A DNA stretch of 64,000 nucleotides from Pyrinomonadaceae bacterium (GCA_035545035.1 DASZZL010000159.1:13873-77872); one strand, 5' to 3'; shown: positions 14,767-59,433, counted from the stretch's first letter. The notes: generated from the sequence alone by a model not told the origin. Numbers and translations: made by a program.

Positions 14767-14788
14767 TCAACCGTTAGATGCGACGCCG

Positions 14789-41479: not shown

Positions 41480-44400
41480 TCAATCTAACCGCAGCACGGC
41501 AGATTTTGCAATAGCTTTCTCATCGCGAGCCAGCAGTCTCATCCGCGCCTGCCGGCGAGCCATGAAGACGGCGGCAAATAACACACTGACTGCAACTATC
41601 GCCGCAGACCATTGACCCGAATCCATGATTGTCGAGGACGTAGCGCTCGTGGCTTTCGGATTCCGCGGCGCGGTGGCCGGCTCGTCAGCCACGGTGAAAG
41701 CTTCGCCTCGGCCTTCATTCGTCCGCAGCATCCGCTGCGTTTCCGCGAAAGAAAACGGTCGCGCTCCGCGTCGACCGAAAACGGCGATCTGGTTGCCGCT
41801 CTCGTCCACGGCGCGATCGCGATCGAGCGCTTTTGAAACGGCGAGCGCTTCGCCTTTCGTTTTAAACGTCGCGATCAGCTGCGGCTCGGGCCGCGGACTA
41901 AATCCGGCATAAGTCGCCATCGTTTCCGGCGAAGTGAGTTGCAGAATACGCAAGCCGTTCTTGCCATCAGCCACATAGGCGAACAAGCTTGCATTAGTCA
42001 TAGCGACCTTGACCTGGCGCGCGTCGTTCAATTTGCCGTCGGCGTTGTAGAGCTGATCGAGGCGCGGCTTCTCCGGGCTCTTCACATCGACGATCGCTAC
42101 GCCATCTTTTCCGTCGGCGACGTACGCGTATGTCCGCGCCACGTAAACGTCGCGCGCGTCACGAAGCTGAACGCTTGCGCCTTCGACAGAGTGCGCGCGC
42201 TCCGGTTCGGTGAGATCGATCACTTTCAAGCCATCATCGTCAACGACGAAGCCGTACCGGAATTGAATGGCGATCGCGCGCGGATGCTTCAATGCAATGC
42301 GAGTAGCAATCTTTGGGTTTAGCGGATCGTCGATACTGACGATTACCAACTCGCGTTCGGTTGTGATGTAAGCGTGCGTGCCCGCAATCGCGATGTTGTT
42401 CGCTCCTGTTAATACCCCATCCGGATTGAACGCGCCGTTTGAGTATTTCGGGGGATCGAGCTGGCGCTTCAAATAATTATTCAAAGGATCGCCGTCCAGC
42501 AATGTCGCGGCGTTGACCAGAATCAAGCCTTCGAACTTATCGACGACGTAGAGATAAGCGTAGAGTGGATGAATCGGCTGCTCTTCATTAACAAGTTTAT
42601 CAGCGCTCATCTGTTTGGCGGTTTCTGGATCAACCATCTTCCCGTCCGTCGTCATTCGCCAGCGCGCCGGATCCACCGCCAGTGTTGAGGGCGCGGCAAC
42701 CGCCGTCGCGTACCTTGTCTTCACATAAAACTTTTGCCCGAATGGCGAGACGGGCGCGGTCGTGATGCGTTCCGAAAATCCTTTCTGATCGATCTGCGCC
42801 ACATCGTAAACGCGCAAGCCGCCCTCGCCCGCCGCGACGTACGCGTACTCTCCGCGCAGCTGTACCTGCAGGACTCGCGGATTGCCTTTGTGTTCAAACG
42901 CAGTACGAAGCTCGCGATTATCGCTCACAAATTTCTTGTAATCGTCCGTGTACACGACCTTTTGCAGCGTGCTGCCAAACACGGCCTGCGGCTCAGTGTG
43001 TTCAGTGGCGACGACGGCTTCCAGCGCGTCACCTGACGCAACGTAAACGTATCGTCCCATGAAATTGACAAAGTTCGTGCCCTGCAAAAGCAGTTGCGCC
43101 ATCCACGCGTTGTTGTCGTTACTCTTCGAGACGTGACAATCGGTGCAGCCTTTGGTTTCCGTGGCGCGCACGGTGTGCGGCACGTGCGTATTGAAAGTTT
43201 GTCCCGAATAACCTTCGGCCGAAACGGTCTGCTGTTGCGAATAAATCCATTCGCGATTCTGATTCTGTGAACTGACCAGCACCGCGCTCGACGAACGCAC
43301 CGGCGCGATGCGATTACCAGTGACGGTCCCGTCTCGGCCGAGCATGAACACATCGTCGCGCAGCACCTGATAGTTGTAGGTCGTGAAGTTGCGCGTGTCG
43401 CCGCCTTCGTTGTGGCGGTTCGGCATCTTTCGATTCGCCTGCATCGACAGATGACAGCCAAAACAGCTTGTGATCCACGACGAGTGGCAGGCAAAGCACG
43501 TCATGTTCGAATCGCGATGCGCCAAAAGCTTATCGTCGACCGGCACGTCGCCCCAGGTCGAGTTGTCGGTGCGCATCGTTTTCGCATAGCGCGACTTCAC
43601 GCTGTAGTCTTCCGGATGCGGCGCGTTGGGATTGATGGTGTCGGTCGTTTGCTTGACGCGCCACCAGCGGCCGGGAACGACCATCGAGTTCTGAATGATG
43701 TCTCCGGCTTTCAGCGCGATGTCATTTCCGTTCTCGTCCTTTTTCTTCGTATCGTTTCTGATGGGCTGGAAAAGCGGCACCTTACCGCCGTTCGGATCGC
43801 GGAAGCGGATGTTTGCCAGAGGGCGCTTCGGGCCCTCTGCGAACTTTCCGTCTTTGACGCTCGTGCCCGCGGCAAATCCCGAGGTGAGCAGCGTCGCCCG
43901 TTCGCGAATCGTGCCATGACAGTCGATGCAACCGATCTCGATCGCCGCGCGCGGTTCGTTGTAGAGAATGCCGTTGCCGTGCGCGTCTTGCCGGAAATGG
44001 CAATCGACACAGTGCATGCCTTTCTCAAGATGAATGTCGTTGAGATGGACGGCCTTCTTGAATCGATCCGGATCGTCGGGCGGGACAATTCCGTTTTTTG
44101 CGTCGAGCAAGTTCCCTTCACGATCGCGTTTGAAAACCTGGCGAAACATCCAGCCATGTCCGTGAAAGTCTGCGAACTGCGCCCGCTTGAGCTGGCCGTT
44201 GAATTCGGCTGAGCCGGTCTGGTTTAAGAATTCTGGTTCAGACCACAGCCCGCGCAGACTCGACGCTTCCGGATTGCTGTTCAGCTTTTGCTGCTCTTCG
44301 GTCTGCGAAGGATTGTGTTGCTGCGCCGGATACATCTTTTCGCCATCGGTTTCGTTGTCCCACCAGATCAGACCTTGATACGACGCGACCATATTCTCGC

Positions 44401-45517
44401 CCGGGTGCATGTGACAGACCATGCACTGCGAAGTGGGAATCCGCGAAGTCAACTGATGTTTGATCGGATGGCCCGATTCATTTTTCGGAATGCTTACGTC
44501 CGCGCTCTGCGACACGCCAAGATTTCCAGCTGAGTTATAGAAAGCTGAATGCCGCGCATCGCGATCGTTCGCGTAGATGACGTGACACGCCGTGCATCCT
44601 GACGAACGATAATCGCCGGGATGATCATTCGTACCCAGAAAGTTCAGCGTCGGATCGAGCAGACGAGTCTTTTGCAAGCCGAGATAGACCGGATCGGTGC
44701 GCTGCGCAGTTCCGAATCCGCGCGCGCTTAGTCCCTTGTCCGGCTTCCCCGGATCTTCGTCTTTGTCTGGCAGGCCAACTTCCAAACGCCGCTTGCCGCC
44801 GCGCTCGAATACGCGCAGGACATTTCCCGGTTGCGAAATTTCCCAACGCGGCAGTGGATCGAGAAACGAGAGAATCCCTTTCAGTCTTCTTTGCTCCGCA
44901 GTTGGTTGCGGATTTTGAATCAGACTTTGCGGCGCGCCATTCTCGCCATAACTCTCGCCGAAGTTGGCGTCTTTGATCGGAAAGCCGCCGTTGTTATAAA
45001 GCGCGGCGCCCCAAAGCATCGCGCCGTGCGTCATCATGCTTTTCGCGACGCCGCTAGACTCTGTACTGTGGCACTCAGAACTGCCGCATGTTTTCCCGGC
45101 CACGCGCAAATCTCCGGGATTGATGAAACGGACGAACTCGAGACTTTCTTTCTCAAGCAGCGGCCCTGAGCGCTCGGGGACTCTGAACTTTCCCTCGCGC
45201 ATCCACTCGCGCGGAAAGCGTGGTCGCACATGCGCTGTGTCCTTCTCGGTCGCTGCCGGATTGCCGCCGTGACACGCGGTGCACGTCAAACCCAAAGCGT
45301 CTTTGCCATGATCGAGTTTGTCGAGCGTCGCCGACGGACCGAAGCGATGCATCGGTTCGATCTTGTCATGACATTTCAGGCAACCTTCGAGATTTTCGAT
45401 CGAAGCAGATGACCATGAACCCTCGGCGCGGGTACGAAAAACCAGGAATGCCACAGAGACACAGAGACACAGAGAAAAAACCAAGAGCCCACTCCTCAAT
45501 TGTGTTGATCTGATCAT
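41480..45517 (-). CDS. Multihaem c-type cytochrome (9 CXXCH + 1 CX4CH) fused to an LVIVD-repeat beta-propeller, with C-terminal TM anchor
   Basis: Haem motifs: CLKCH, CTACH, CGSSECH, CTACH, CMVCH, CVDCH, CIDCH, CFACH, CFGCH, CTDCH. Six LVIVD-like repeats ([101 protein letters not shown]). C-terminal [25 protein letters not shown]. Confidence 0.85.
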
Positions 45518-45551
45518 TCTTTCTTTCTCTGTGTCCCTGTGCCTCTGTGGC
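45450..45551. repeat. Family D MITE-like element (copy 2), overlapping the cytochrome start
   Basis: GCCACAGAGACACAGAGACACAGAGAAAAAA ... TCTCTGTGTCCCTGTGCCTCTGTGGC. Confidence 0.8.
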
Positions 45552-45556
45552 TTAAT

Positions 45557-47704
45557 TCAAAAAATAAACTTCACTTGCGCGAACAAATTGAACAACGGCT
45601 TGCTCGGATTAATAATCGTGTTGTCCGCGGTGCAGAAGTCTCTCAAGTTCGGCGGACAGTCCGTCGCCGCGTTCGTGTAGATATCGCGAAAGCCGCGTCC
45701 CGGTTTCAAAGTCGCCGCGCCGAACGTCATCGTCACGTTGTTAATTAAGAACGGGCGATACGCGACGCCAAGACTGTAGTCCCAGCCAATTTCGTGTCGA
45801 ATGTGGGGTTGAAACAGAACGTATTCGAGCGACTCGGTGCGATGAAAGCGCAGATAGTTCGCGTTAAAAACTGCTTTCAAGCGCTGCGTAATTTCCACGT
45901 CCACGCCCGCGTTGTAAATAAAGATTCCCGGATTGACGAAGTTCGCCTGCCCTTCGATCTTGCTGCTGCGCAACGACGGCAAGATGCTGTTCGCCTGCAC
46001 CAGGCCGACTCCTGTTTGCGTCAGGCGTATGCCGTTACGATTCCAGAACGAGAATTGTCCGCCGACGAAATTCGGATCGTCGAAGATCGCGTCAAAACCT
46101 GTCGCCTTTCCGTCCGTCGGATTCTTATCGCCCTGCGCCCAGAAAACCGATCCGCGAAAACGAAAATAATCTTTATCGATCGACGCTTCGGTTGCGGCCA
46201 TTTGCGAGCTGATGTGAACTGATCGCCCAGCAATCGGATTACGATCGTCGCGACCGAATGCGTAATAGTAAGAGTTCGTCAGGTTAAGCCGGCCGACATG
46301 GCCGTCGCCGTTGACGCCAACATAGCCAACCTTGATCGCGTGTGGTCGCACGTCGCCAATCAATGCAGGACGGACCAGAAAACCGTTGCGATCGAATTTG
46401 TGGCTGCGACGATCGTCGTTGTAAAGCGCGCTCGCCTGAATCGTGTAACCCTTTTTGATGAAGTCCTGACGAAAAATGTTCGCGACGTAAACGTTCTGAT
46501 GCCGCAAATCGAAACGATTCAGCCCACTGTTCGTGTCCTTCTCAAGCTGGGCGAAGTAAGCGGCGTTGTACTGGTAACGATTGTTATCAAAGCTGCCGAA
46601 GATGCGCGCGCCCAGATTGTTGTCTGAAAAGATGAAGCCGCGAAAATCGGAAACGAATGGTTGAATGCCGACGCGCGCGGAGATGAAATCAAAATTCGCG
46701 TTGACGTCGGCAAGCTTCACTTCACCGAACGCTTCTTCCAGCGAAACCTGCGTATCGGTGCGATTCGTGCCACGGCGCACATCGATGTTGACGACGCCGT
46801 TTTCGCGCGCGTTGAGGTAGTTCGGCAGACTGAAAGTCGGCGAAATCTTGATCGCCCAGTCGCGCGGCTTGTAGGTCGAATCGCCGTGGAACATCTCAAA
46901 CGTAAACTGGAAAGTTTGATTTACGGCGAGGGCTTCCGGCTGACCAAAAAACTCGGCGCTGCCCGGACGTGCGCTGCTGACATCCGAAGGCGTCGGCGTG
47001 CGCCGCAGCTCGACATCGGTCGAACTCACCGCCGAAAGGATCATGAACGTCTTGTTGCCGATGATCGGGTAATCGCCTTTCAACTTACTCTGATGATAAG
47101 GGTCATACCAATGGCCCTTCGTGAAGGGAATGTCGCGTCCGCGCGCGCCTTTGTCGCCGTAGCGATCGTATTCGGGAAAGCCTATGCGCCAGCGGTCGCG
47201 CACCGCGCGGCGATCCGTCTGCGTCTGCGGTTCCGACTCGACGCTCTTCTCGCCGGCGGCGCCCGAAGGCTTGCGTTCGGGAATGCTGACGAGCGGCTTC
47301 TCTTCTCTCTTCTCGACTTCAAAATCGATCTTGGTTTCTTTACCTTGGCTGACGATAACGTTCTCCAGCACGTCGTCGCGGATCACGGCGTGTTCGCCGT
47401 AATTCTTCGCCTTATCAAACTTCGCGACGTAAGGTGGTGCCACCGTTACGCGATAGGCGCCCGCAGGGAGTCGCGCTGCATAGCGTCCGTCGGCGCCGAC
47501 GCGGGCGCGCGTGACTCTGCTCGTTACTTGATTGGTCAGCACCACGACCACGCCGGCCGCCACAGGATGAACCACACCGGTAATGCTTCCGCGGCCTTGT
47601 CCGAGAGCAAGAGTTGCGGACGCCAGTATCAACACGACCACGGCGCGCGCGCCTGAGGCGCGTAGTCCCAACCTGGAAAGCCGCGTTTTCATCAGCCAGG
47701 TCAT
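45557..47704 (-). CDS. Predicted outer-membrane beta-barrel protein with N-terminal CarboxypepD_reg-like domain
   Basis: Signal, GSITGVVHP..RVGADGRYAARLPAGAYRVTV, long alternating-hydrophobicity region, terminal ..NLFAQVKFIF (aromatic C-terminus). Confidence 0.65.
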   Translation of the reverse strand: MTWLMKTRLSRLGLRASGARAVVVLILASATLALGQGRGSITGVVHPVAAGVVVVLTNQVTSRVTRARVGADGRYAARLPAGAYRVTVAPPYVAKFDKAKNYGEHAVIRDDVLENVIVSQGKETKIDFEVEKREEKPLVSIPERKPSGAAGEKSVESEPQTQTDRRAVRDRWRIGFPEYDRYGDKGARGRDIPFTKGHWYDPYHQSKLKGDYPIIGNKTFMILSAVSSTDVELRRTPTPSDVSSARPGSAEFFGQPEALAVNQTFQFTFEMFHGDSTYKPRDWAIKISPTFSLPNYLNARENGVVNIDVRRGTNRTDTQVSLEEAFGEVKLADVNANFDFISARVGIQPFVSDFRGFIFSDNNLGARIFGSFDNNRYQYNAAYFAQLEKDTNSGLNRFDLRHQNVYVANIFRQDFIKKGYTIQASALYNDDRRSHKFDRNGFLVRPALIGDVRPHAIKVGYVGVNGDGHVGRLNLTNSYYYAFGRDDRNPIAGRSVHISSQMAATEASIDKDYFRFRGSVFWAQGDKNPTDGKATGFDAIFDDPNFVGGQFSFWNRNGIRLTQTGVGLVQANSILPSLRSSKIEGQANFVNPGIFIYNAGVDVEITQRLKAVFNANYLRFHRTESLEYVLFQPHIRHEIGWDYSLGVAYRPFLINNVTMTFGAATLKPGRGFRDIYTNAATDCPPNLRDFCTADNTIINPSKPLFNLFAQVKFIF

Positions 47705-47832
47705 TTCAGCCGCTCGACAAATCAGACGCTAAGTTTGCACAAATACGATGTTGATTTGATAAGGTCTTGTAGCATAGGAGTCGCGAGCTATCAATCAAAA
47801 TCTCGTAAGTACGACACGCAGGAAAACGTGCT

Positions 47833-47860
47833 TTGACTCACTCGCGATTAATGATAGATT
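47833..47860 (+). promoter_or_regulatory. Possible sigma70-type promoter (TTGACT-16 nt-TAGATT)
   Basis: Pattern match in the AT-rich 200-nt divergent intergenic region, 46 nt upstream of ATG 47906. Confidence 0.3.
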
Positions 47861-47905
47861 GCCCGCAGAAGCCGAGATCGCAGCTTCGCACTGCCGGCAC
47901 GTCCA

Positions 47906-50065: not shown

Positions 50066-50094
50066 GTCAGAACCGCCTGCGGTAGCGGGCGGGT
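50066..50094 (+). repeat. Family B half-site
   Basis: GTCAGAACCGCCTGCGGTAGCGGGCGGGT starts directly after stop 50063-50065. Confidence 0.7.
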
Positions 50095-50116
50095 TGATCC
50101 CAGAAGAGACGATTTC

Positions 50117-50917
50117 ATGAGTTCACGAGCAATCCGCTTGATTCTTTTCAGTGTTGTCGTGCTCTCGATTGTCGTGACTAACTTTGTCGCTCACACTCAA
50201 GCTCCACAAGCGACGCGCGGCGTCATCCGGTTGAAGGTCAAATACAAAACCGGCGACGTGCCAAAGGAGCTTCCACGCAGGCGCTTCTTTCTGATCAAAG
50301 GCAGTCTCGAAGAAAACAAAAGCCTTATCGAAAAGATCAAGCAGGCCTCGCTTCAATCGCGCGAGTGTTATTACCGAAGCCTTGGCGCCAGCGAAGCCTT
50401 GATCAAGTGGCTGAAGGAGAGCAATTGCGAATCCATATATTGTCGCGAGATTGAAGAAAGGTATGTCATCGGCAGCGAGGCTGTGCCGGAATTTCAAGCG
50501 GCCTACAGTCGAGGGCTGCGCGATTTCAAAACTCCCGAGCTGGCGCGAAGATGGCTCGCTGTCAATCTTTCCATGGAATTACGCGCCGGCTTTTACAACC
50601 AGAAGCAGGAAGCCATCAACTCGCTGGTGGCGCAGGCCGAAAGTACAACCAAGACCAAAGTGATGTCGGTGATGACGGATCGCAAAGGCACGGCATATCT
50701 AACCGATATCGAGCCCGGCATGTACACGATCTCGAATCTCGTCGGCAGTGAAACTGAAAAGACGAGCATCCTGTGGGCCTGCGAGAAAGAAGTGAAAGCA
50801 GTGGATCTGGCGGTGGCGATGAAAAGGCCTTTCACTCTGTCGAATGAGAAGGACCCGAAAGTTAAGTGCGAGATCGTCGAACGACCGCTACCGGTTTGTG
50901 AGAAGACGGTTAAGTGA
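50117..50917 (+). CDS. Secreted hypothetical protein
   Basis: Signal MSSRAIRLILFSVVVLSIVVTNFVAHTQA. No catalytic motif. One CarboxypepD_reg-like stretch (TDRKGTAYLTDIEPGMYTISN). Confidence 0.6.
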   Translation: MSSRAIRLILFSVVVLSIVVTNFVAHTQAPQATRGVIRLKVKYKTGDVPKELPRRRFFLIKGSLEENKSLIEKIKQASLQSRECYYRSLGASEALIKWLKESNCESIYCREIEERYVIGSEAVPEFQAAYSRGLRDFKTPELARRWLAVNLSMELRAGFYNQKQEAINSLVAQAESTTKTKVMSVMTDRKGTAYLTDIEPGMYTISNLVGSETEKTSILWACEKEVKAVDLAVAMKRPFTLSNEKDPKVKCEIVERPLPVCEKTVK

Positions 50918-50927
50918 GACCGCCTAT

Positions 50928-51024
50928 GGAGTGCGGTGGCAAGCGTAGCGCGACACCGCTTTGGATATTTGCCAAGGCCGAAACCAAAGCGCCGTCGCCG
51001 GCAACGCTTCGGCCGGCGCACTCC
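50928..51024 (+). repeat. 97-bp palindromic element (family C, copy 1)
   Basis: GGAGTGCGGTGGCAAGCGTAGCGCGACACCGCTTTGG...CCAAAGCGCCGTCGCCGGCAACGCTTCGGCCGGCGCACTCC. Near-identical copy at 54112-54208. Confidence 0.85.
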
Positions 51025-51026
51025 AA

Positions 51027-52130
51027 ATGAATTTGTCGAACGCTTTGATGTCACGTCGAACCATTCTCTTGCTAATCTCTGTCGCGTGCGCCGCGGTGTT
51101 AACTGGCGCGCAGACTCGCCATCCGAAGCGCGTCTCGAAACCCGCTTCAACTACACGACCAGCTCCGAGCCGATCGGCCGCCAAGTATTCGGCGTTTCTC
51201 CATTCGTCTGAGAAACACAAGAGCCTCGCGTGCAACGCCTGCCACAAGCTGCCGACCGCGTGGACGGCGAAGAGAGATTTTCCCGACGCCGCAGACTTTC
51301 CCGATCACGATGCGTGTGTGCGTTGCCACCGGCAACAATTCTTTACGCGGCAAGCGTTCGTCGGCACCGGCCCGACGATTTGCACAGTCTGTCATGTGCG
51401 CGCCGCGCCGCGCGAAGATGCGCGCTTTGCTTTTGGCAAGCCTAATAACACGAATCAATCTGCGAAGCCGAAAGAAGAACGCCAGTTCACGATTGAGTTT
51501 CCGCACGACAAACATCAGAACGTGATCGCATCGCTGCGTCGTCGGGCCGAGGAAGAAGATAACGTTCGCTTAATTCGTGCTTCATTTTTCGGACCAGCCG
51601 CACCAGACGACAAGAAACCTGACTACAACAACTGCTCGATTTGTCACGTAACGAATCATAAAGTGCCGGCCGCTTTAGCGGATTCGTTCCTGCCGCCGGC
51701 CGGAACTTTCAAGACAATGCCCCACGCGCACGATGCGTGTTTCGATTGTCATTGGAAAAGTCAGAAGCCGGCCAGCGACGACTGCGCCGGATGCCATAAA
51801 CTTGCCGCCACGTTTGTCGCGATGGATTGGCCGCAGCGCAAGTCCGCGAAGTTCAGTCATGAGGGTGGCAAAGAAAATCATGTTCAGGAGTGCACGACCT
51901 GTCACATCAACATTACCAGGGCAAGCACGCTGCAGGGATTAACTCCCGACGTTCCGATTACGGCGTGTGCGACGTGCCACAAGGACAACAAGAAAATTAC
52001 GTATCCGAAGATCACAACGATTGAAGAAGAGCTTGCGCAGTTCAAGAAAACGAGCAACTGCACGTATTGCCACGCGTCAGATGTTGGGAAGAAGAAGCCG
52101 CCGGCGAGTCATGAGGCGGCGGTGCAGTAA
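51027..52130 (+). CDS. Nonahaem c-type cytochrome (c3/c7-like multihaem family)
   Basis: ATG 51027 gives signal MNLSNALMSRRTILLLISVACAAVLTGAQ. Haem motifs: CNACH, CVRCH, CTVCH, CSICH, CFDCH, CAGCH, CTTCH, CATCH, CTYCH. Confidence 0.85.
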   Translation: MNLSNALMSRRTILLLISVACAAVLTGAQTRHPKRVSKPASTTRPAPSRSAAKYSAFLHSSEKHKSLACNACHKLPTAWTAKRDFPDAADFPDHDACVRCHRQQFFTRQAFVGTGPTICTVCHVRAAPREDARFAFGKPNNTNQSAKPKEERQFTIEFPHDKHQNVIASLRRRAEEEDNVRLIRASFFGPAAPDDKKPDYNNCSICHVTNHKVPAALADSFLPPAGTFKTMPHAHDACFDCHWKSQKPASDDCAGCHKLAATFVAMDWPQRKSAKFSHEGGKENHVQECTTCHINITRASTLQGLTPDVPITACATCHKDNKKITYPKITTIEEELAQFKKTSNCTYCHASDVGKKKPPASHEAAVQ

Positions 52131-52600
52131 GACAAGGAAAAAGTAAAAAGGTAAAAGGCAAAAAGAAGAGAGTGGTAAGAACAAACAGTGTGAAATTGAG
52201 TTAGAGGATCAAATCGAGCGGGATTGGAGCAAACCACCTGCTGTGATGAGCGCACTACGCAAAGAAGTGACGGAACATGAGAGCACTCAGTCAGCCCGCG
52301 TTCAGCGGGCGGCAGAATATAGCCCCAGGCGTAAGCCTGGGGTTGGGTTCACAACTGATGACCTGAGCCCCGCAAGGGGCGACAGAGATTCAGATCCAAA
52401 GCTTGAGAGTAAGCAAAACGTCTGCCGCCCTCTTCGAGGGCTTGCTGGAATTGTGTCTTATCTTAACCCCGGGCTTACGCCAGGGGCTACACTCTGCCGC
52501 CATCTCCGATGGCTGGTTGAGCGGTCTCTTCTTAGGAGAGCAAGAGCCAGCGCAGTTTTGTTTTTTTCCTTTTTCCTTTTTCCTTTTTCCTTCTCGGCTG
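52131..52600. repeat. Composite intergenic structure: purine word array, inverted pair of REP family A-like units, pyrimidine word array
   Basis: 52135-52175 GGAAAAAGTAAAAAGGTAAAAGGCAAAAAG vs 52556-52598 TTTTTTTCCTTTTTCCTTTTTCCTTTTTCC. Hairpins CAGCCCGC-GTTCA-GCGGGCGG, CCCCAGGC-GTAA-GCCTGGGG, GCCCCGCAAGGGGC, CCCTC-TTC-GAGGG, CCCCGGGCTTACGCCAGGGG. Confidence 0.75.
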
Positions 52601-53358
52601 CGCCGCAGGGCAACGACCAGGACTATTCGAAGTTTCTGCACACGAGTCAGCGTCATGCGTCGGTTGCGTGTTCGGCTTGTCATCATCGAAATGACAACTC
52701 AGCTCAGCCCATCTTCCCTGGTCACAAAGACTGTACCGGATGTCATCTGACGCAGTTCACCACGCCTAACGTGCCCATGTGCTCGATCTGCCACACGAGC
52801 GTGAACGGTAACGATCCCCCGCGAAAGCCTTTCCCTGGCAGCTTCAAAGAAAGCTTCAACATGAAATTCGATCATGCCCAGCACATGACGGGCGCGGCGC
52901 GTCCAAAGAGCGGCTGCGTTGCTTGTCACAGCTCGCCGCTGAGACGCGGCGTCGCGTTATCCATCCCGGCCGGGTTGTCTGCGCACAATCAGTGCTACAC
53001 CTGCCACACTCCGAAACTCCAAGCGAATGGACGCGACATCGCGTCGTGCAAGACGTGCCACGATCAAAAATCGTACGCGAGAACTCCGACCAATACCGCG
53101 GCGTTTGGTCTCTCTTTCAGTCACGTGCAACACGGCACGCGCCAACGTCTGGCTTGCGCGGATTGTCACAACTACACGGCCGGATTGCTACAACGGCGAC
53201 AGGTCAGTTCAACGCGCGCCCTGGCGCACTTCCCGAGCGGAAACAACACGTGCGCGAGCTGTCACAATGGAAAGCGATCCTTTGGCGGTGATCTGAACTT
53301 CAAAGATTGCCGGCGATGTCACGCCGGGCAGACGTTTCGGTTGGGCACGGGGCAGTAG
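52243..53358 (+). CDS. Nonahaem c-type cytochrome, paralog of 51027..52130 (start codon uncertain)
   Basis: Haem motifs: CSACH, CTGCH, CSICH, CVACH, CYTCH, CKTCH, CADCH, CASCH, CRRCH. The mature part starts about 52600. Everything from 52243 to about 52600 is repeat-derived, so the true start is unresolved. Confidence 0.75.
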   Translation: MMSALRKEVTEHESTQSARVQRAAEYSPRRKPGVGFTTDDLSPARGDRDSDPKLESKQNVCRPLRGLAGIVSYLNPGLTPGATLCRHLRWLVERSLLRRARASAVLFFSFFLFPFSFSAAPQGNDQDYSKFLHTSQRHASVACSACHHRNDNSAQPIFPGHKDCTGCHLTQFTTPNVPMCSICHTSVNGNDPPRKPFPGSFKESFNMKFDHAQHMTGAARPKSGCVACHSSPLRRGVALSIPAGLSAHNQCYTCHTPKLQANGRDIASCKTCHDQKSYARTPTNTAAFGLSFSHVQHGTRQRLACADCHNYTAGLLQRRQVSSTRALAHFPSGNNTCASCHNGKRSFGGDLNFKDCRRCHAGQTFRLGTGQ

Positions 53359-53471
53359 CCCGGCTGTAAGGGAGCGCGCTAAGTTAATAATAAGGAAACC
53401 GAGACCGCTCCGCGTGCATCGAACGAGTCCAGTTTGACAAGCTTTCGATCACGTTCATAAGATTGGCCGAT

Positions 53472-53501
53472 GTCAGTACCGCCTGCGTTAGCGGGCGGGT
53501 C
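53472..53501 (+). repeat. Family B half-site
   Basis: GTCAGTACCGCCTGCGTTAGCGGGCGGGTC. Confidence 0.7.
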
Positions 53502-53534
53502 TTGCAAGGCCACGGAACCCGGAGAGAACAAAGA

Positions 53535-54104
53535 ATGAAGCCGATTAAAATCCTGATTGCGGTACTGAGTTTCGTCGTGGTTACTATCGTTTCGAACGCG
53601 TCGCTCAGCACGGCTTCACAGCAGATACCGAAGGAAGGCAAAGAACAGCCGACGAAGGTCAAGCTGGACACGGACAGCGTCGATGACAAATGGGGCGAGG
53701 TCGCCTTCGATCACACAAACCACACCACCAAGAACTACAGCATCGACGGCAAGTCTCTCATCAGCTGCGTCGAATGCCATCACACCGATCAGCCGAAAGA
53801 GAACCTGAAAGCACCGCTCGTCACCTCGGAAAGAACCGTAGCTCTGACCGCTGACGTGCTGAAGGATGCCGCCGCCACACCCGTCAAGACCTGCCGCTCG
53901 TGTCACCTGCAAGCCGGCGACGACAGCAAACCGCTTCCCGTAATTAAGAAAGATGACAAAGAAGTGAAGATGGATAACGAGGTCGCCTATCACACGAACT
54001 GCTTTGTCTGCCACGACGCCGCTATCAAAGCGCGGCCTGATCTCGCCACGAAGATTTCAGGTTCAGATCCGAAGGGCTGTGTGAAGTGTCACGTCGCCAA
54101 GTGA
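53535..54104 (+). CDS. Tetrahaem c-type cytochrome (c3-like)
   Basis: GGAGAG RBS, ATG 53535, signal MKPIKILIAVLSFVVVTIVSNA. Haem motifs: CVECH, CRSCH, CFVCH, CVKCH. Confidence 0.85.
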   Translation: MKPIKILIAVLSFVVVTIVSNASLSTASQQIPKEGKEQPTKVKLDTDSVDDKWGEVAFDHTNHTTKNYSIDGKSLISCVECHHTDQPKENLKAPLVTSERTVALTADVLKDAAATPVKTCRSCHLQAGDDSKPLPVIKKDDKEVKMDNEVAYHTNCFVCHDAAIKARPDLATKISGSDPKGCVKCHVAK

Positions 54105-54111
54105 CGTTCTT

Positions 54112-54208
54112 GGAGTGCGGCGGCAAGCGTAGCGCGACGCCGCTTTTAATTAATCTACCAACAAATCCAAAGCGCCGTCGCCGGCAACGCTTCGGCCGGC
54201 GGCACTCC
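54112..54208 (+). repeat. 97-bp palindromic element (family C, copy 2)
   Basis: GGAGTGCGGCGGCAAGCGTAGCGCGACGCCGCTTT...CCAAAGCGCCGTCGCCGGCAACGCTTCGGCCGGCGGCACTCC. Same orientation as copy 1. Confidence 0.85.
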
Positions 54209-54212
54209 AAAT

Positions 54213-55682
54213 TTATCGCATCGAAAGCAAGCTCGGATTCCAGTGCCGCTTATCTCTGACGTGCTGAACATGGCATGAGGTGCAGTTGGGTTTGTCGGCA
54301 GCAATCACCTGACGCCCCGCGCGCGGATCGGTTTGACCGTTGTGACACTTCGCACAGGTTGTGCGCGGAGTAATTAGATCAATCGGGTCGCGCGTCGCAT
54401 GACAACTCGAACAACTCAATTCGCCTTCTTTGTTGCCCGGAAGACCTGCGATCGCCTTCACTCGATAAAGATGCACAGCGTGGAATTGTTTACTGCGCCA
54501 TTGGTCCTCGCTGTCTGTCGGTAAGCGTTCGAGTTTCAAAGTTTCTTTCCTGACAGCCATTTCCTGCTCGTCGATGCCAGTCCAGTTCCAGTGACCATCA
54601 ACCACCGGATAGCCAAATGTGCCGCCGTGTGGAGTGCTGACTTTCTTTCCGTTGTAGAAATGTTTGTTGCTATCGCTATGACACTCGGCGCATGACAGCA
54701 GCGCGCCGCCGATCGCGCTGAACTGCGCGCCGCGATGTTCGGCATGACACTGCGCGCATCCGATTCCGGCATTGATGTGTGGCTGAATCACGGTGGCCAC
54801 GAAAGCATCGGTCGCGTGACACGACGAACATTTCGTTTCCATGCTGGTTCTGAGCGCGTGACACGAAGTACACGCGCCGGCGTTCGCGCGATTCGCAATC
54901 GACGGTGACAAAACCAATTTCGTTCGCGTGTGCGCATCAGAGATGGGCGCCGGCGCAAACGCCTTTGCATAAAAAAGCGCGCCCGCCGCCGACAGCAATC
55001 CGACTACGATAACTCCCCATGCGATTATTGAGACAGGCCAGCGTCGTTTCAGATCGCTGGTCGGCGTCCACACCGACTGTGCCTTGCCCGAAGGTCGGCC
55101 AGTCATTGGGAAAAGCGGTGATGGCTTTACAGTTTTGGTCGCCGCTGTGATGCGTTTGTCCCAGAAAACGTCGAGCGCTTTAGAGCTCGTGGCAGCGGGT
55201 TTTGGTTTTCGCTGAGGAGGCTTCTTGTGCGCGCCTTCTGCTGGTTGCCCTTCCGTTGGCGTGATTGGAAATTCCAGATTCATGGTCGTGGCCAAGTCCC
55301 ACATGCCTGACTCTTCTCTGCGCGCGACGGCTTCGCCGGGCGTCGCACCGATTTGCAGCGACACGCTGATCACCAGCGCGTCGTCTTTGAAATCTATGTT
55401 CAGGGAAAACGGGCCGATTCCCAGAAGGTCGCCCGCAGTCAAAGCTTCGTACTGCTCTAATGGCTTGCCGTTGAGAATGATCGGATTCGCGGGCCGAAGG
55501 TTGCGGATGTAGTATTCCCCTTCCGTCGCGGTAATGCCGGCGTGCAGACGAGACACGGAAGGATGGTTGAGCAGTAGCTCGCACGTCGGCAGCCGGCCGA
55601 CCAGCAAGCCTTCGGCGACGATTGTCACCGGATCGACCTGCAAGTCGTCGCGAATGATGATGAAAGTGCCTTGCATACTCAT
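54213..55682 (-). CDS. FHA domain - single TM helix - heptahaem c-type cytochrome fusion
   Basis: FHA: VGRLPTCELLLNHPSVSRLHAGI..ILNGKPL..GDLLGIGPF. TM: WPVSIIAWGVIVVGLLSAAGALFYA. Haem motifs: CTSCH, CSSCH, CAQCH, CAECH, CSSCH, CAKCH, CTSCH. Confidence 0.85.
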   Translation of the reverse strand: MSMQGTFIIIRDDLQVDPVTIVAEGLLVGRLPTCELLLNHPSVSRLHAGITATEGEYYIRNLRPANPIILNGKPLEQYEALTAGDLLGIGPFSLNIDFKDDALVISVSLQIGATPGEAVARREESGMWDLATTMNLEFPITPTEGQPAEGAHKKPPQRKPKPAATSSKALDVFWDKRITAATKTVKPSPLFPMTGRPSGKAQSVWTPTSDLKRRWPVSIIAWGVIVVGLLSAAGALFYAKAFAPAPISDAHTRTKLVLSPSIANRANAGACTSCHALRTSMETKCSSCHATDAFVATVIQPHINAGIGCAQCHAEHRGAQFSAIGGALLSCAECHSDSNKHFYNGKKVSTPHGGTFGYPVVDGHWNWTGIDEQEMAVRKETLKLERLPTDSEDQWRSKQFHAVHLYRVKAIAGLPGNKEGELSCSSCHATRDPIDLITPRTTCAKCHNGQTDPRAGRQVIAADKPNCTSCHVQHVRDKRHWNPSLLSMR

Positions 55683-55753
55683 CAGTTGGCAGTGAGCGGT
55701 GAGCAGTAAGCAGTTGTCTTACAGTTCACTCTGCCCACTGCTCACTGCCAACT
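55683..55753. repeat. Imperfect 23-bp palindrome (CAGTGAGC word family) filling the intra-operon spacer
   Basis: AGTTGGCAGTGAGCGGTGAGCAG (55684-55706) vs the reverse complement of CTGCCCACTGCTCACTGCCAACT (55731-55753); 2 mismatches. Confidence 0.75.
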
Positions 55754-58215
55754 TACCGTACATTAAAGAACACAACCTGGATTACGTGCACGCACATCAA
55801 CGCCAGCATCAGCGACGACGAAACGACGTGCGGCGCCAACCAAACTTTCAGCAAACGATGCAGGTAGACGAGCGATTCCACGCGCCGCAGAGTCGCCGTT
55901 CGCTCGATGGCTTTTAAGAGCAGGTTGCGCTTTTCTTTATCATCCAGCGCAGAAAGTTCGGACTTGAACTGAAGGCGCGCTCGCGCCAAAAGCGTGGTCA
56001 GCTCCTCGCGACGAATGTATTGCCGCACCAGATAAGCGATCGAAAAGAAATGGCGACGCACGCTCCCTTCCAGCAGCTGGCGCATTTGATCATCGCCCTT
56101 GTCCGCGATCGCGGCCAGCTCTTCGCGCAGTTCGTTACGTCGCGTCTCGAGGTCTTCGATCAGCAGCGGGTCGCCTTCGATGCTGGTCATGATGCGCGGC
56201 ACGACCAGGTAACACGCGAGCCCAAACAATCCCGAAAGAATTACGAGATCGAAAGAGACCATCAACGTCGCAGTGAGCAGGCCGCCGCCATGACTGGCGC
56301 CGTGCATCAACAAAACGATGCCGGCAATCACGCCCAGATAAATGTGCGCCAGCAGCCAGTAACGCAACGCGCCCGCGCGCCGGCGGTACACGGGTTTGCG
56401 AATCGGATACGTCATCACGCCGGCGATGCCGACTAAACCAACGAGGCCGGTGACCCAGCGCATCGTCAGCCAGGTTCCCCCTAAATGATCGTTGAAGCCG
56501 TGATGCACAACGGCGAACGCGATCATTGCCGTAACAGCGATCGTGAATAGAACACCGCCGATGTGCCAGAACCTGGCGATCGGATCGCTCTTGTGAATGT
56601 TGCGTCCGATGGCGTGCGTCTGATCGCGAAAGACCAGACCGAGCGTCTTCTCGATCTCGCCAAAGTATTCCTGTGGATTGACGCGCACCAGCGCGCCCGT
56701 CGGGCAATTCTCTTCGCATGAATAGGCTGGACGTGACGCGCCTGACGGATTCAGCGGCGTGGCCTCACAGAGGTTGCACTTGATCGCCACCATGTCCTCG
56801 CCTTCGGCCGCTGCTGCCGTAGCTGCCGGCACGTTGAAGCTAAACAAGCCCTTGATTCGGTTGACGAGATTTGGCGAAGCCGTCGGCGGCCCGTTGCGCG
56901 GGACCATCGTGATCGCGTTGTAAGGACACTGCGTTGCACAGTCGAAACAACCGATGCAAGTCTTCGGATCGATGTCCACGTGCCCTCTCGGATCGCGGAA
57001 GATTGCACCCGTCGGGCAACCAGTCAGGCATTCCGGGTCTTTGCAGTGCATACACACCGACGGCGAAAGCACATGCTGCGTAGCTTTGCTTTCAGGTTGG
57101 ACCGGGCGTTCGATGTGAATTCCCCTGCGTAGCAACCGCGACTGTCCATGAACTTTGTGGCACGCGAGCGAGCAGTTGCCGCAGCGAATGCACAAATCCA
57201 TGTCCATCACCAGCAGGTTGACGCCGTCAACGATGCCAGTAGCAATTTCTTTTTTGGCCGCCGTGAGACTCTCTTTGTCCGCGCGCGCGCGCAGGCTCGT
57301 GTCATCGTCGGCGACTGAGAAATCCGCGAAAACTTTCAGCACCCGGTCGCAGAGTTGCTGATCGGAACGCAACTCAGCCAACGGGATCTCCAGCACTTCA
57401 GTGCGGGCCATCAGCTCTGCGGAGTATTGCCAGGTGCTTTGTCCAGTCAGGCCTTCCAACCCGAGGCAATTGCCCGCGCCCAGAAAATCTTCCGGAATCA
57501 GCGTGCTGGTGCCGGCACCGGCGCCCTCGGTGATGTCTGCAAAAATCGGGACTCCGCGCACGCGCCGCACCCAACCGCTTCTGATCAAAAAAAGTCTATC
57601 GATCGGCTTTCCTTCTTCGATCAGCAGGTGATGCTTGCCGTAGGCCATGAATTGCGCCAGGTTGCCCAGCGCAACGAGTTCGATGGCACTCAAAGAGTCG
57701 CCGGCCGCTTCCTGGATCTGAGCGATCGTGTTACCCAGTCCGTGGATGCGATATGTTGAGTCGACTTTCTCGGCAAACTTCTTGAGCGATCTCAAAAGCC
57801 TGAGTGCGGGGCGAACCATTTCGAGAATAGTCACCGCAGCGCCATCCGCGGGCGCGACAATTGTCGCGTTGCGCGGCACTCCAGCGAGAACCGACATCTC
57901 TCCGAAGCACGATCCCGCCTCAATCCGCCCGACCTTCCTTTGCTGACCTGCATCATCAGCGACAAGGACGTGCAGCTCGCCTTTCACCGAAAGGTAAAAA
58001 GTATTTCCGCCCCACTCGCCTTCGCGCATGATGACTTCGCCGGGAGAGTACGCGAGCAAACGCGCGTAAGGCCCGATTTGCTTGCCGCCGGAAACCTTCC
58101 CCTCGGCGATCATCTTGAGATTGTTCTTATTCTTTTCGTCGAGCAGCTCGGAAACGATGTCGACCTTCTTGAGAGCTTCCAGGATCGCTTCGGGCCTGAC
58201 GTCTTCTTTTGGCAT
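55753..58215 (-). CDS. Cyclic-nucleotide-binding (x2) - 4x[4Fe-4S] ferredoxin - polytopic membrane domain fusion protein
   Basis: cNMP cassette FGEMSVLAGVPRNATIVA. Cys clusters CIRCGNCSLAC, CMHCKDPECLTGCP, CIGCFDCATQCP, CNLC..CEENCP. At least 5 hydrophobic helices with conserved His (VVHHGF, LLAHIYLG, LLMHGASH). Confidence 0.8.
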   Translation of the reverse strand: MPKEDVRPEAILEALKKVDIVSELLDEKNKNNLKMIAEGKVSGGKQIGPYARLLAYSPGEVIMREGEWGGNTFYLSVKGELHVLVADDAGQQRKVGRIEAGSCFGEMSVLAGVPRNATIVAPADGAAVTILEMVRPALRLLRSLKKFAEKVDSTYRIHGLGNTIAQIQEAAGDSLSAIELVALGNLAQFMAYGKHHLLIEEGKPIDRLFLIRSGWVRRVRGVPIFADITEGAGAGTSTLIPEDFLGAGNCLGLEGLTGQSTWQYSAELMARTEVLEIPLAELRSDQQLCDRVLKVFADFSVADDDTSLRARADKESLTAAKKEIATGIVDGVNLLVMDMDLCIRCGNCSLACHKVHGQSRLLRRGIHIERPVQPESKATQHVLSPSVCMHCKDPECLTGCPTGAIFRDPRGHVDIDPKTCIGCFDCATQCPYNAITMVPRNGPPTASPNLVNRIKGLFSFNVPAATAAAAEGEDMVAIKCNLCEATPLNPSGASRPAYSCEENCPTGALVRVNPQEYFGEIEKTLGLVFRDQTHAIGRNIHKSDPIARFWHIGGVLFTIAVTAMIAFAVVHHGFNDHLGGTWLTMRWVTGLVGLVGIAGVMTYPIRKPVYRRRAGALRYWLLAHIYLGVIAGIVLLMHGASHGGGLLTATLMVSFDLVILSGLFGLACYLVVPRIMTSIEGDPLLIEDLETRRNELREELAAIADKGDDQMRQLLEGSVRRHFFSIAYLVRQYIRREELTTLLARARLQFKSELSALDDKEKRNLLLKAIERTATLRRVESLVYLHRLLKVWLAPHVVSSSLMLALMCVHVIQVVFFNVR

Positions 58216-58365
58216 GGAATTGTGCGCAGCTTAGCACGCTACTACTGAGGGAATCCACACCCTCGGGCGGCGTGGCAATCCCGCTGATAGCAGTGGTTGA
58301 CCTGCGCGAGACGTGATAGCATCCGCGTACACGGCAATCAATTTTCAACGTAATAATTGGCGGCA

Positions 58366-59283
58366 ATGCTGATTCCGACCTTTCAAGTGCGCGCCCCTTC
58401 GAAGCGCTGGATAGTCGTCGCCGGCGTCCTCGTCGTTTCGCTCGTTTCGATCGCGTGGAGCTTTGATCGATTCGTGCTGCACGCTCGCGGCTTTGGAGGG
58501 GCGCCCGCCTCGTCAAAACAGAACGCAGGAGGCAGAAGGCAGGAGGCAGCAAGCGACCACGCCAGCGCGGCCAGTGTGGTACGGCCAGCCGCATCGACCT
58601 TGGTTGACGCGGACAACGACGGCATCCCGGACGTGGCCGAGTTACGCACGTTTCAGGATCGCGAGAGTTTTCGCCGCTGGTTCACCGCGATCGCCGAGAT
58701 GCAGTTCTATCAATTGAGCGATCAGTGGAATGTCGATCAGCGCGATTGTGCCGGGCTGGTCCGTTTTGCGATCCGCGAAGCGCTGCGTCGTCACGACCGC
58801 CCCTGGTTTCAAAAGATGGGCCAGGGTTACCAGACGGTCGCGCCGGATGTTGCCGGTTTCGATTTGGATCACAACCCGCTCGGCGAAAAGATCTTTCGCA
58901 CTGACTTTGGATCGTTTCATGAAAGCGATTTGCGCGACGGCAGGTCTTCAGAGTTTGCCGATGGCCGCGCGCTGAAGAATTTCAATACGGCTTTCGTCAG
59001 CCGCGACCGTCGCGAAGCCGAAGCAGGCGACCTAATCTTCTTCTATCAACCCTGGGTCCAAAAATTTCCTTATCACGTGATGATTTTTCTGGGCGGGCCA
59101 CGCGTCGCGCCGAACGGCGCGCAGGATTGGGTCGTCTATCACACCGGCTCATCGCCGATAGATCAGGGAACGGTGAAGAAGGTCGAGCTTTCCGTGCTCG
59201 ATCATCATCCCGATCCGCGCTGGCGACCGGTTGAGAGCAATCGCAATTTTCTCGGGTTCTACCGATTGAAGATTGTTGAGTGA
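58366..59283 (+). CDS. DUF1175 (YfaT-like) protein with N-terminal membrane anchor
   Basis: ATG 58366. WIVVAGVLVVSLVSIAW. QRDCAGLVRFAIREAL and YHVMIFLG blocks resemble DUF1175 as I remember it. Followed by an alpha-2-macroglobulin gene, as in the yfaS-yfaT context. Confidence 0.6.
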   Translation: MLIPTFQVRAPSKRWIVVAGVLVVSLVSIAWSFDRFVLHARGFGGAPASSKQNAGGRRQEAASDHASAASVVRPAASTLVDADNDGIPDVAELRTFQDRESFRRWFTAIAEMQFYQLSDQWNVDQRDCAGLVRFAIREALRRHDRPWFQKMGQGYQTVAPDVAGFDLDHNPLGEKIFRTDFGSFHESDLRDGRSSEFADGRALKNFNTAFVSRDRREAEAGDLIFFYQPWVQKFPYHVMIFLGGPRVAPNGAQDWVVYHTGSSPIDQGTVKKVELSVLDHHPDPRWRPVESNRNFLGFYRLKIVE

Positions 59284-59398: not shown

Positions 59399-59433
59399 AT
59401 GTTTTTCGTTGAGCGCCTCTCTGGAGGATATCG

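Follow-up and report, generated by a model that had tools for sequence, protein, structure and literature searches.

A candidate signal-gated transmembrane electron conduit in Pyrinomonadaceae, built from a cyclic-nucleotide-binding iron-sulfur membrane protein and an FHA heptahaem cytochrome

A 64,000-nucleotide stretch of DNA from a Pyrinomonadaceae bacterium (GCA_035545035.1, DASZZL010000159.1:13873-77872) was analysed, and is referred to below as the window; coordinates are counted from its first letter. The analysis concerned two adjacent genes, here called gene A and gene B, which may together encode a regulated route for electrons across the cytoplasmic membrane. An earlier note, made from the sequence of this DNA, had placed the genes at 55753..58215 and 54213..55682, 70 nucleotides (nt) apart, and open reading frames (ORFs) were present at exactly these coordinates, both on the minus strand. 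The features of gene A are as follows.

55753..58215, minus strand: gene A, 820 amino acids (aa), with tandem cyclic-nucleotide (cNMP)-binding domains, a four-[4Fe-4S] ferredoxin domain and a di-haem-b-like domain of five transmembrane (TM) helices (ORF and translation, Pfam, NCBIfam).
57811..58083, minus strand: cNMP-binding domain 1 (about residues 45-135), with the intact phosphate-binding cassette FGEMSVLAGVPRNAT (best Pfam PF00027 stretch, residues 55-126).
57316..57663, minus strand: cNMP-like domain 2 (about residues 185-300), degenerate and without the cassette Arg (second Pfam stretch, AlphaFold2 beta-sandwich, Foldseek).
56671..57213, minus strand: four-cluster ferredoxin domain (residues 335-515), with 16 Cys (alignments, PDB relatives).
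55756..56583, minus strand: membrane domain (residues 545-820) of five TM helices (hydropathy, loop charges, conservation, AlphaFold2).
55855..56202, minus strand: cytoplasmic helical insert between TM4 and TM5 (residues 672-787), with 22 Lys and Arg, modelled as all-helical with a predicted local distance difference test (pLDDT) score above 90.

The gene A product is identical to an NCBI record annotated as 'cyclic nucleotide-binding domain-containing protein [Pyrinomonadaceae bacterium]'. Its full-length structure model had a pLDDT of 80 and a predicted template-modelling (pTM) score of 0.75. A twin-arginine motif was looked for and was not found, in agreement with the earlier note. The same note had described a canonical cNMP cassette followed by a second, degenerate domain, and this arrangement was recovered. 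Pfam PF00027 matched two stretches (E 2.7e-23; 82.2 bits against a cut-off of 27.5). In the cassette of domain 1 (FGEM..LAG.PRNAT), the G, E, R, A and T were at least 95% conserved among 161 homologues, and the phosphate-binding Arg of domain 2 was lost in the same set. Foldseek related the N-terminal ~300 residues to the tandem cyclic-nucleotide-binding (CNB) domains, CNB-A and CNB-B, of the PKA and PKG regulatory subunits (E 3e-12 to 1e-10; about 1e-12 for the full-length model). The likeness extends to the tandem fold and the intact first cassette; the regulatory subunits, however, carry these domains on a kinase-inhibitor segment, whereas A carries them on a redox protein and its second site is degenerate. 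No helix-turn-helix (HTH) or other output domain was identified in A by Pfam, and a CRP/FNR-type transcription factor was rejected for lack of an HTH domain.

The central region of A contains four ferredoxin-type cluster motifs, with Cys ligands at residues 342/345/348/352, 388/391/396/400, 420/423/426/430 and 480/483/500/504. Shuffles of the sequence gave a mean of 0.0012 such motifs, against the four observed. All 16 Cys were invariant in alignments of distant homologues, down to 24-30% identity, and the four-cluster iron-sulfur (FeS) domain was joined to the membrane domain in all 161 full-length homologues. Pfam assigned the region to Fer4_7/Fer4_11 and a block of 4Fe-4S dicluster families. 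The NCBIfam matches were to NrfC, DsrO, ArrB, DmsB and TtrB (E 1e-15 to 1e-17), which bears out the earlier description of clusters of the NrfC/DmsB kind. The best of these scored 61.8 bits against the curated NrfC cut-off of 377.6, and the other families were likewise far under their cut-offs. The closest PDB chains were ArrB (6cz7_B, 1.5e-15) and PsrB (2vpw_B, 8e-14), followed by FdnH and NarH. A molybdopterin or other catalytic alpha subunit gene was found neither near A in the window nor among the conserved neighbour families. With scores so far under the cut-offs and no catalytic subunit, the assignment of A to a named NrfC, DmsB or NarH enzyme was rejected. Judged by these matches, its FeS domain is homologous in fold to the beta subunits of the complex iron-sulfur molybdoenzyme (CISM) family and lies outside every named enzyme family.

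The five hydrophobic helices of A all lie past residue 550. No Pfam or NCBIfam model covered residues 540-820, and stand-alone relatives of the domain were also without an NCBIfam model. An exhaustive HMMER search of 1.8 billion representative sequences gave 1,371 relatives of the membrane domain. These fell into three groups, comprising proteins with the same fusion of cNMP, Fer4 and TM domains (to 24-30% identity), stand-alone proteins, many of them of ~270-300 aa, and one metagenomic protein, P0140, described below. When a profile of the TM-domain alignment was run against a set of 5.8 billion proteins, nearly all the matches were Pyrinomonadaceae fragments and no diversity was added.

The earlier note had pointed to several conserved-looking His in a polytopic domain. 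Among 60 diverse sequences, exactly four His were invariant; TM3 carries H624 and H638, and TM5 carries H796 and H810. Both pairs are spaced H-x13-H, and each is preceded by an invariant W-x3-H (W620 and W792). The four-His pattern recurred in three further alignments and was kept down to 24-30% identity; R606 and G662 were near-invariant in the 60 domains. A pair of His 13-14 residues apart on each of two helices is the classical way in which proteins such as cytochrome b and the NOX/FRD family hold two b-haems in a stack. Furthermore, when 41 members were scanned singly against Pfam, the only recurrent weak matches were to two-haem cytochrome b families. All were below threshold: Ni_hydr_CYTB in 19 of the 41 (best E 5e-4), DUF4405 in 16 (4e-5) and Ferric_reduct in seven (3e-3); the window protein itself had none. 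The AlphaFold model of the domain was all-helical and confident (pLDDT 86, pTM 0.79). On the strength of the conserved ligand pattern, the membrane domain is very probably a new, divergent di-haem b family.

The topology of A was assigned by the positive-inside rule. The loops at residues 571-582 and 638-652 contain no Lys or Arg, while those at 602-618 and 672-787 contain 6 and 22, respectively. The last of these is the 115-residue insert between TM4 and TM5, which has the conserved opening PRI.TsIEG.plLieDL. These charges indicate an N-in/C-out orientation, so that the cNMP and FeS parts are cytoplasmic and one His pair lies near each membrane face.

The features of gene B are given below, in the order of its product.

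54213..55682, minus strand: gene B, 489 aa, with an FHA domain, a conserved linker, one TM helix and a heptahaem cytochrome c domain (ORF, Pfam, family conservation in 111 homologues).
55413..55604, minus strand: FHA domain (residues 27-90; Pfam PF00498, E 2.6e-13).
55047..55181, minus strand: juxtamembrane cytoplasmic motif (residues 168-212), ..aLd.FWdKRi...pSPLfP...GKaq..W.pT.DL (conservation in the 111 homologues).
54972..55028, minus strand: single TM anchor (residues 219-237; hydropathy 2.35).
54243..54935, minus strand: periplasmic heptahaem domain, with CXXCH at residues 271, 285, 309, 331, 424, 443 and 467 (motif positions).

The architecture attributed to gene B in the earlier note, an FHA domain with one TM helix and seven CXXCH motifs, was confirmed by Pfam, hydropathy and the motif count. 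The FHA domain scored 50.6 bits against a PF00498 cut-off of 20.7, and its GR, SR and NG residues were at least 95% conserved in the 111 homologues. All seven CXXCH motifs were conserved in the same set; 20,000 shuffles of B gave a mean of 0.019 motifs and a maximum of two. The haem domain showed weak matches in Pfam and NCBIfam to the Cytochrom_c3_2, c7 and DmsE-family cytochromes, and no close solved structure was found for it. An assignment of B to the quinol dehydrogenases of the NapC/NirT/CymA or ImcH/CbcL types was rejected, as there was no match to any such profile in Pfam or NCBIfam. The c-haems of B must be periplasmic and its FHA domain is cytoplasmic, which places the FeS and haem domains of the pair on opposite sides of the membrane, a check that had been set beforehand and with which the loop charges agree. 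The threonine of the W.pT.DL motif, with Leu at position +3, could speculatively be a phospho-site that is read by an FHA domain.

Two RNA elements flank gene B.

55685..55752, minus strand: strong hairpin filling the spacer between A and B (folding energy -42.9 kcal/mol, z -6.5).
54167..54195, minus strand: terminator-like hairpin, 18 nt past the B stop codon, with an 11-bp stem and a T-rich tail.

With the terminator-like hairpin after B, the two genes look like a bicistronic unit. None of 200 shuffles of the spacer folded as well as the native sequence. Its outer arms are a perfect 13-nt match, GTTGGCAGTGAGC; it has no T-run and ends 3 nt ahead of the B start codon. It may be an element for mRNA processing or stability, or for translational coupling. 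The hairpin is present as a single copy in the window, on which ground a repeated element of the repetitive extragenic palindromic (REP) kind was rejected, and the length of the spacer varies among relatives.

Conservation of the pairing was analysed in loci from three sources. The first was a set of one genome per GTDB species, which contained 178 relatives; the best 80 of the 178 were all Acidobacteriota and came from Pyrinomonadaceae, Blastocatellia and Chloracidobacterium metagenome-assembled genomes. The second was a profile built from distant homologues and run against metagenomes, which gave 80 further loci, and the third consisted of three contigs of distant proteins. Only loci whose sequence continued for 1.7 kb or more downstream of A were counted, 127 in all. 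A B-family gene encoding an FHA-multihaem protein accompanied A in 124 of them, in every identity bin including that below 35%, down to 25%; the adjacency expected by the earlier note is thus conserved. In L082 alone, B is encoded 0.7 kb away on the other strand; in the remaining positive loci it follows A directly on the same strand. The A stop and B start often overlap among relatives (gaps of -4 to +4 nt). In one locus (L013:10515-11956) the B homologue is frameshifted into separate FHA and haem ORFs, through either an assembly error or a pseudogene. Homologues of the module number more than 2,300; they are abundant in soil Acidobacteriota, with relatives in marine and freshwater metagenomes.

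The pairing is also seen within a single polypeptide. P0140 (1277 aa) opens with a 650-residue N-terminal region without assignment; a TM helix and a B-like heptahaem domain come next, and a further TM helix leads to an A-like di-haem domain. FeS and cNMP domains are both absent from it. Its heptahaem part matched B by BLASTP with an E of 7e-28 at 30% identity, the anchor helix included. P0140 is a Rosetta-stone fusion of precisely the two parts that are proposed to touch, and therefore supports A and B as a unit.

Among relatives, the partner gene of A was found in three layouts. In the first, a single protein of 1050-1430 aa begins with FHA domains (one to five) and a TM helix, continues with six to eight CXXCH motifs and another TM helix, and finishes with a ferredoxin (2x[4Fe-4S]) joined to a flavoprotein of the Pyr_redox_3/Pyr_redox_2 type. 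In the second, a short B is followed 1.4-3 kb downstream by a separate gene that encodes a two-TM hairpin with the same ferredoxin and the same flavoprotein. In the third, the short B stands alone, as it does in the window. Among known families, the flavoprotein comes closest to YpdA and the thioredoxin reductases. Both dinucleotide-binding motifs are present in it and a redox CxxC is missing, which indicates an NAD(P)H:ferredoxin-type module. The chain predicted from these domains in the flavoprotein-bearing clades would run from NAD(P)H through FAD, two FeS clusters, four FeS clusters and two b-haems to seven c-haems.

Genes for signalling enzymes were present beside the module in other clades. 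In L099, L127, L139 and L149, a gene resembling the class-II cAMP phosphodiesterases (PDEase_II) and a gene for an FHA-GAF-adenylate/guanylate cyclase follow B directly. In L149 (13527-15977), and likewise in the other three loci, these two genes come after a long FHA-cytochrome-flavoprotein gene, and the gene row resembles a private cNMP circuit. In a distant clade, a PP2C-type Ser/Thr phosphatase gene (L082:12543-13676) adjoins the FHA-cytochrome-flavoprotein partner. Enzymes that make and destroy cNMPs, as well as a phospho-Ser/Thr phosphatase, thus travel with the module. A cyclase and a phosphodiesterase (PDE) were searched for in the window and neither was found; a simple motif scan of the window gave no Ser/Thr kinase. 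In the clades examined, neither A nor B was joined to a kinase, cyclase, HTH or GGDEF transmitter domain, which leaves the redox chain as the sole possible target of the reader domains.

The DNA downstream of B is rich in genes for multihaem cytochromes and associated proteins.

50961..54104, plus strand: three convergent multihaem cytochrome genes (9, 9 and 4 CXXCH), MtrC/c7-like (Pfam, haem counts).
41480..47704, minus strand: a 1345-aa nine-haem protein with an LVIVD beta-propeller (41480-45517) and a 715-aa CarboxypepD_reg/barrel-like protein (Pfam).

The window contains 40 CXXCH motifs in six ORFs, including the seven of gene B and a two-motif ORF at 14744-16075. Most relatives have such cytochrome genes close to the pair: the tetrahaem family was present in 87 loci and the nonahaem one in 85. 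In the sister clade formed by L099, L127, L139 and L149, all the module genes are co-directional. The multihaem LVIVD gene runs in the same direction as A and B in L149 and L099, where the upstream flank gives the row of nine-haem LVIVD protein, two multihaem genes, A and a long B; in L081 it is placed after A and B. From its domain content, the cluster at 41480-54104 looks like a porin-cytochrome-type electron path from the periplasm to the outer membrane, of which the nine-haem LVIVD and barrel-like proteins would likely be the outer part. The same interval also encodes a 719-aa secreted protein with three HbpS-like domains and a 266-aa protein without a family. On the other side of A are a DUF1175 gene (58357-59283, plus strand) and an ORF of at least 1529 aa (59413-64000, plus strand) that runs off the end of the window. 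This pair also lies upstream of A in L006 and L013, where the second protein has 1650 aa, and is probably unrelated to the redox module.

Taken together, we consider it probable that A and B are the two membrane subunits of one complex that conducts electrons across the membrane under regulation, most likely outward. Electrons would enter or leave through the cytoplasmic chain of four [4Fe-4S] clusters in A and would cross the membrane by two stacked b-haems, the cytoplasmic-side haem bound by H624 and H796 and the periplasmic-side haem by H638 and H810. They would then be handed to the seven periplasmic c-haems of B, and would go on to the tetrahaem and nonahaem cytochromes encoded nearby and to the LVIVD and barrel proteins. 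In other clades, the membrane-tethered 2x[4Fe-4S] ferredoxin and the thioredoxin-reductase-like FAD/NAD(P)H flavoprotein would complete the cytoplasmic end. The cNMP domains of A and the FHA domain of B would most likely switch or tune the flow, or the assembly of the complex, in response to cAMP or cGMP and to the marks of Ser/Thr kinases. An outward direction is the most likely one, since electrons lose energy in passing from NAD(P)H to haem c and the membrane potential favours their outward movement. An ungated outlet would drain reductant and membrane potential, which would account for the tight control. In this scheme we infer the binding of haem b, the contact between A and B, the direction of flow, the gating and the independence from quinones. 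The conduit from FeS clusters through the membrane domain to haem c is the interpretation that the earlier note had put forward, and the analysis lends it support through three checks (opposite membrane sides, invariant H-x13-H ligands in both helices, and adjacency), the P0140 fusion, the flavoprotein partners and the cyclase and PDE genes.

A further-reaching version is conceivable, although we consider it less likely than not. The module would then be the prototype of a widespread, quinone-independent class of 'electron valve', made up of a membrane-tethered NAD(P)H flavoprotein-ferredoxin, a four-cluster FeS wire, a di-haem b domain of a new family and a heptahaem domain, through which reducing power from the cytoplasm would go directly to acceptors in the periplasm or outside the cell. 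It would be gated post-translationally, by cAMP or cGMP through the PKA-R-like tandem CNB domains on the wire and by Ser/Thr phosphorylation through the FHA domains on the cytochrome. Such a valve would be a bacterial counterpart of NOX with second-messenger control inside respiratory proteins.

Several findings weigh against the conduit as drawn. The flavoprotein module was absent from the 64-kb window, and in 80 related loci it was not present within 8 kb of A. Among the 111 B homologues, fewer than 70% keep the His of the FHA S-R-x-H motif. A Foldseek search of the membrane-domain model against the PDB gave nothing at E<=0.001, the best TM-score being 0.34, to an unrelated helical bundle; the model, itself confident, thus gives no sign of kinship with known di-haem b proteins at the level of the fold, and haem b binding is predicted from the ligand pattern. 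A profile search of the PDB sequences with the domain similarly gave no match. In three loci (L068, L076 and L100) A occurs without B nearby. These A homologues have 56-58% identity, with no B within 3.7-8 kb, and in L068 and L076 the next gene after A is mutS-like and on the opposite strand. Also on this side are the absence of FeS clusters from P0140 and the occurrence of a related cluster in Fe(II) oxidisers, which are taken up with the alternatives that they favour.

The strongest alternative, which we nevertheless regard as unlikely, links the module to quinol. The membrane domain would be a menaquinol:cytochrome c or an FeS:menaquinone oxidoreductase of the CbcL, NarI or di-haem-SQR type, with the heptahaem domain fed from the quinone pool and the FeS wire either reducing quinone or serving as a side branch. 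P0140, in which a TM domain is coupled to seven c-haems without FeS clusters, fits quinol oxidation, and the lack of an NAD(P)H module in the clade of the window points the same way. The weak matches of the membrane domain were to quinone-reactive families of the Ni_hydr_CYTB/HydC type, and a Fer4 domain of the CISM beta type is the usual partner of quinone-reactive anchors. The constant fusion of the FeS and membrane domains in the 161 homologues speaks against this explanation, as does the ferredoxin-flavoprotein tethered alongside in several clades, for which there would be little reason if the cytoplasmic side played no part. No motif for a quinone site was identified, and a quinol link is also compatible with a through-path.

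Uptake of electrons from periplasmic or extracellular donors, such as Fe(II) or reduced humics, to the cytoplasmic FeS clusters and NAD(P)+ is improbable. Such uptake has been proposed for the FHA-nonahaem cluster of Ferrigenium, and a redox chain is reversible in principle. Moreover, a related split cluster occurs in Fe(II) oxidisers, for which inward flow has been proposed and in one of which it is expressed, and an FHA protein with 10 haems is present in 27 Gallionellaceae genomes (PMC10734462). Inward flow would nevertheless oppose the membrane potential and, by established bioenergetics, the step from haem c to NAD(P)+ would be steeply uphill. No energy-coupling element (proton channel, ATPase or bifurcating flavin pair) is encoded, and the neighbouring genes resemble reductive pathways of the MtrC/c7 type.

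It is quite improbable that the proteins act as a redox sensor, in which haems and FeS clusters would report periplasmic and cytoplasmic redox state to an FHA/cNMP signalling scaffold without bulk flux. The two signalling-type domains in each A-B pair, the up to five FHA domains in relatives, and the nearby cyclase, PDE and PP2C genes would suit this role. Yet FHA and cNMP domains are readers rather than transmitters, with no output domain fused to them in the clades examined, and at least 13 in-line redox centres, together with the flavoprotein and the multihaem and outer-membrane genes, are typical of chains that carry flux. That A is a membrane-bound ferredoxin of unrelated function which lies beside a cytochrome by coincidence is hardly credible, for although three loci have A without B and the intergenic hairpin could uncouple the expression of the two genes, it is contradicted by adjacency in 124 of 127 loci to 25% identity, by the start/stop overlaps and by the domain fusion.

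Literature searches found no characterised system with the architecture of A and B. The statement of the earlier note that it knew of no characterised respiratory module with this domain logic calls for qualification, since the path from FeS through haem b (to haem c) is shared by Hmc/Tmc/DsrMKJOP and NarHI; two preprints had, in addition, noted split clusters. In the Hmc, Tmc and DsrMKJOP complexes of sulfate reducers, a periplasmic multihaem cytochrome c, a membrane di-haem b subunit and a cytoplasmic FeS protein are combined, which is the same transmembrane path from FeS through haem b to haem c. These complexes, however, have a CCG/HdrD-type cytoplasmic subunit and a NarI-like b subunit, with no cNMP, FHA or flavoprotein part, and no sequence relationship to the A membrane domain was detected. 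In comparison with NarGHI, FdnGHI and PsrABC, the Fer4 domain of A is homologous to the beta subunits and, as in NarH-NarI, is placed at the cytoplasmic face of a di-haem anchor with five TM helices; A differs in being a single polypeptide with H-x13-H twice and a 115-residue insert, and in having no molybdopterin subunit.

The His pattern of A resembles that of the NOX, FRE and FRD proteins and of the bc1/b6f cytochrome b, in which two helices, each with two His separated by 13-14 residues, hold a stack of two b-haems. Proteins of the NOX type take electrons from NAD(P)H in the cytoplasm and deliver them on the outer side. NOX and FRD have six TM helices and a fused FAD/NADPH domain, whereas A has five and an FeS wire instead; comparison of A with solved NOX, STEAP and cytochrome b structures gave no Foldseek match, and Pfam gave no match at threshold. 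CbcL, ImcH and CbcBA of Geobacter and CymA of Shewanella are similar to A and B as inner-membrane entries to periplasmic multihaem chains, and CbcL, a di-haem b domain joined to multihaem c, is like P0140. Unlike A and B, these proteins oxidise quinol and have neither FeS nor signalling domains in the cytoplasm.

Further close parallels are two clusters described in preprints. The NHC cluster of Ferrigenium straubiae encodes an FHA-nonahaem cytochrome, a 5-TM protein and a cytosolic [4Fe-4S] protein; its function was stated to be unknown, and the 5-TM protein was described as 'with no redox motif' and without an InterPro match (bioRxiv 10.64898/2026.01.22.701106). A 'Forkhead-associated protein' with 10 haems has likewise been listed in Gallionellaceae (PMC10734462). 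By description, the Ferrigenium cluster shares with A and B the cytoplasmic FHA domain, single TM helix and periplasmic multihaem domain, the 5-TM and [4Fe-4S] partners, and the absence of signal peptides. Its FeS and 5-TM proteins are encoded by separate genes, whereas in the window they are fused and tandem cNMP domains are added, and the FHA-cytochromes of these groups have nine or ten haems against the seven of B. The TM protein was not recognised as redox-active by its authors; the four invariant His of A argue for a di-haem b protein. The ptdABCDEFG cluster, found in marine Alphaproteobacteria UBA11136, Nitrospirales, Planctomycetes and others, has been proposed to encode a porin-cytochrome complex of the extracellular electron transfer (EET) type, with its function unknown (bioRxiv 10.1101/2023.11.21.568154). 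As described, it resembles the module in PtdE (cNMP and 4Fe-4S), PtdF (ferric-reductase-like TM), PtdC (FAD/NAD(P) oxidoreductase), the multihaem cytochromes and a porin. It differs in having separate genes, two FeS clusters and no FHA domain mentioned, in contrast to the fused, four-cluster A, and its penta-, tetra- and decahaem cytochromes are unlike the set in the window. The stand-alone ~280-aa relatives of the A membrane domain fit the membrane proteins described for both the Ptd and Ferrigenium clusters.

What appears to be new here, as judged from sequence comparison, is the recognition of the TM family as a probable di-haem b family, the fused architecture and the near-obligate pairing of A and B, along with the modular flavoprotein input and the cNMP enzymes that appear to travel with the module. 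To our knowledge, the exit of electrons toward extracellular acceptors is known in few models (CymA, ImcH, CbcL and Ndh2/EetAB), each of which operates via quinones. If the proposed reading is correct, the module would represent a direct route from cytoplasmic FeS clusters and NAD(P)H to periplasmic haems. Its membrane domain would define a previously unrecognised di-haem b family, including the ~280-aa stand-alone proteins that two recent studies left uninterpreted, and the reading yields a specific hypothesis about the NHC cluster of Ferrigenium and the ptd cluster. It would also be the first case of second-messenger and phospho-threonine readers fused directly to electron carriers, which implies that a respiratory path would be switched post-translationally rather than transcriptionally. 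Given the abundance of the module in soil Acidobacteriota, it could bear on the cycling of iron, manganese and humic substances and on redox balancing in soil.

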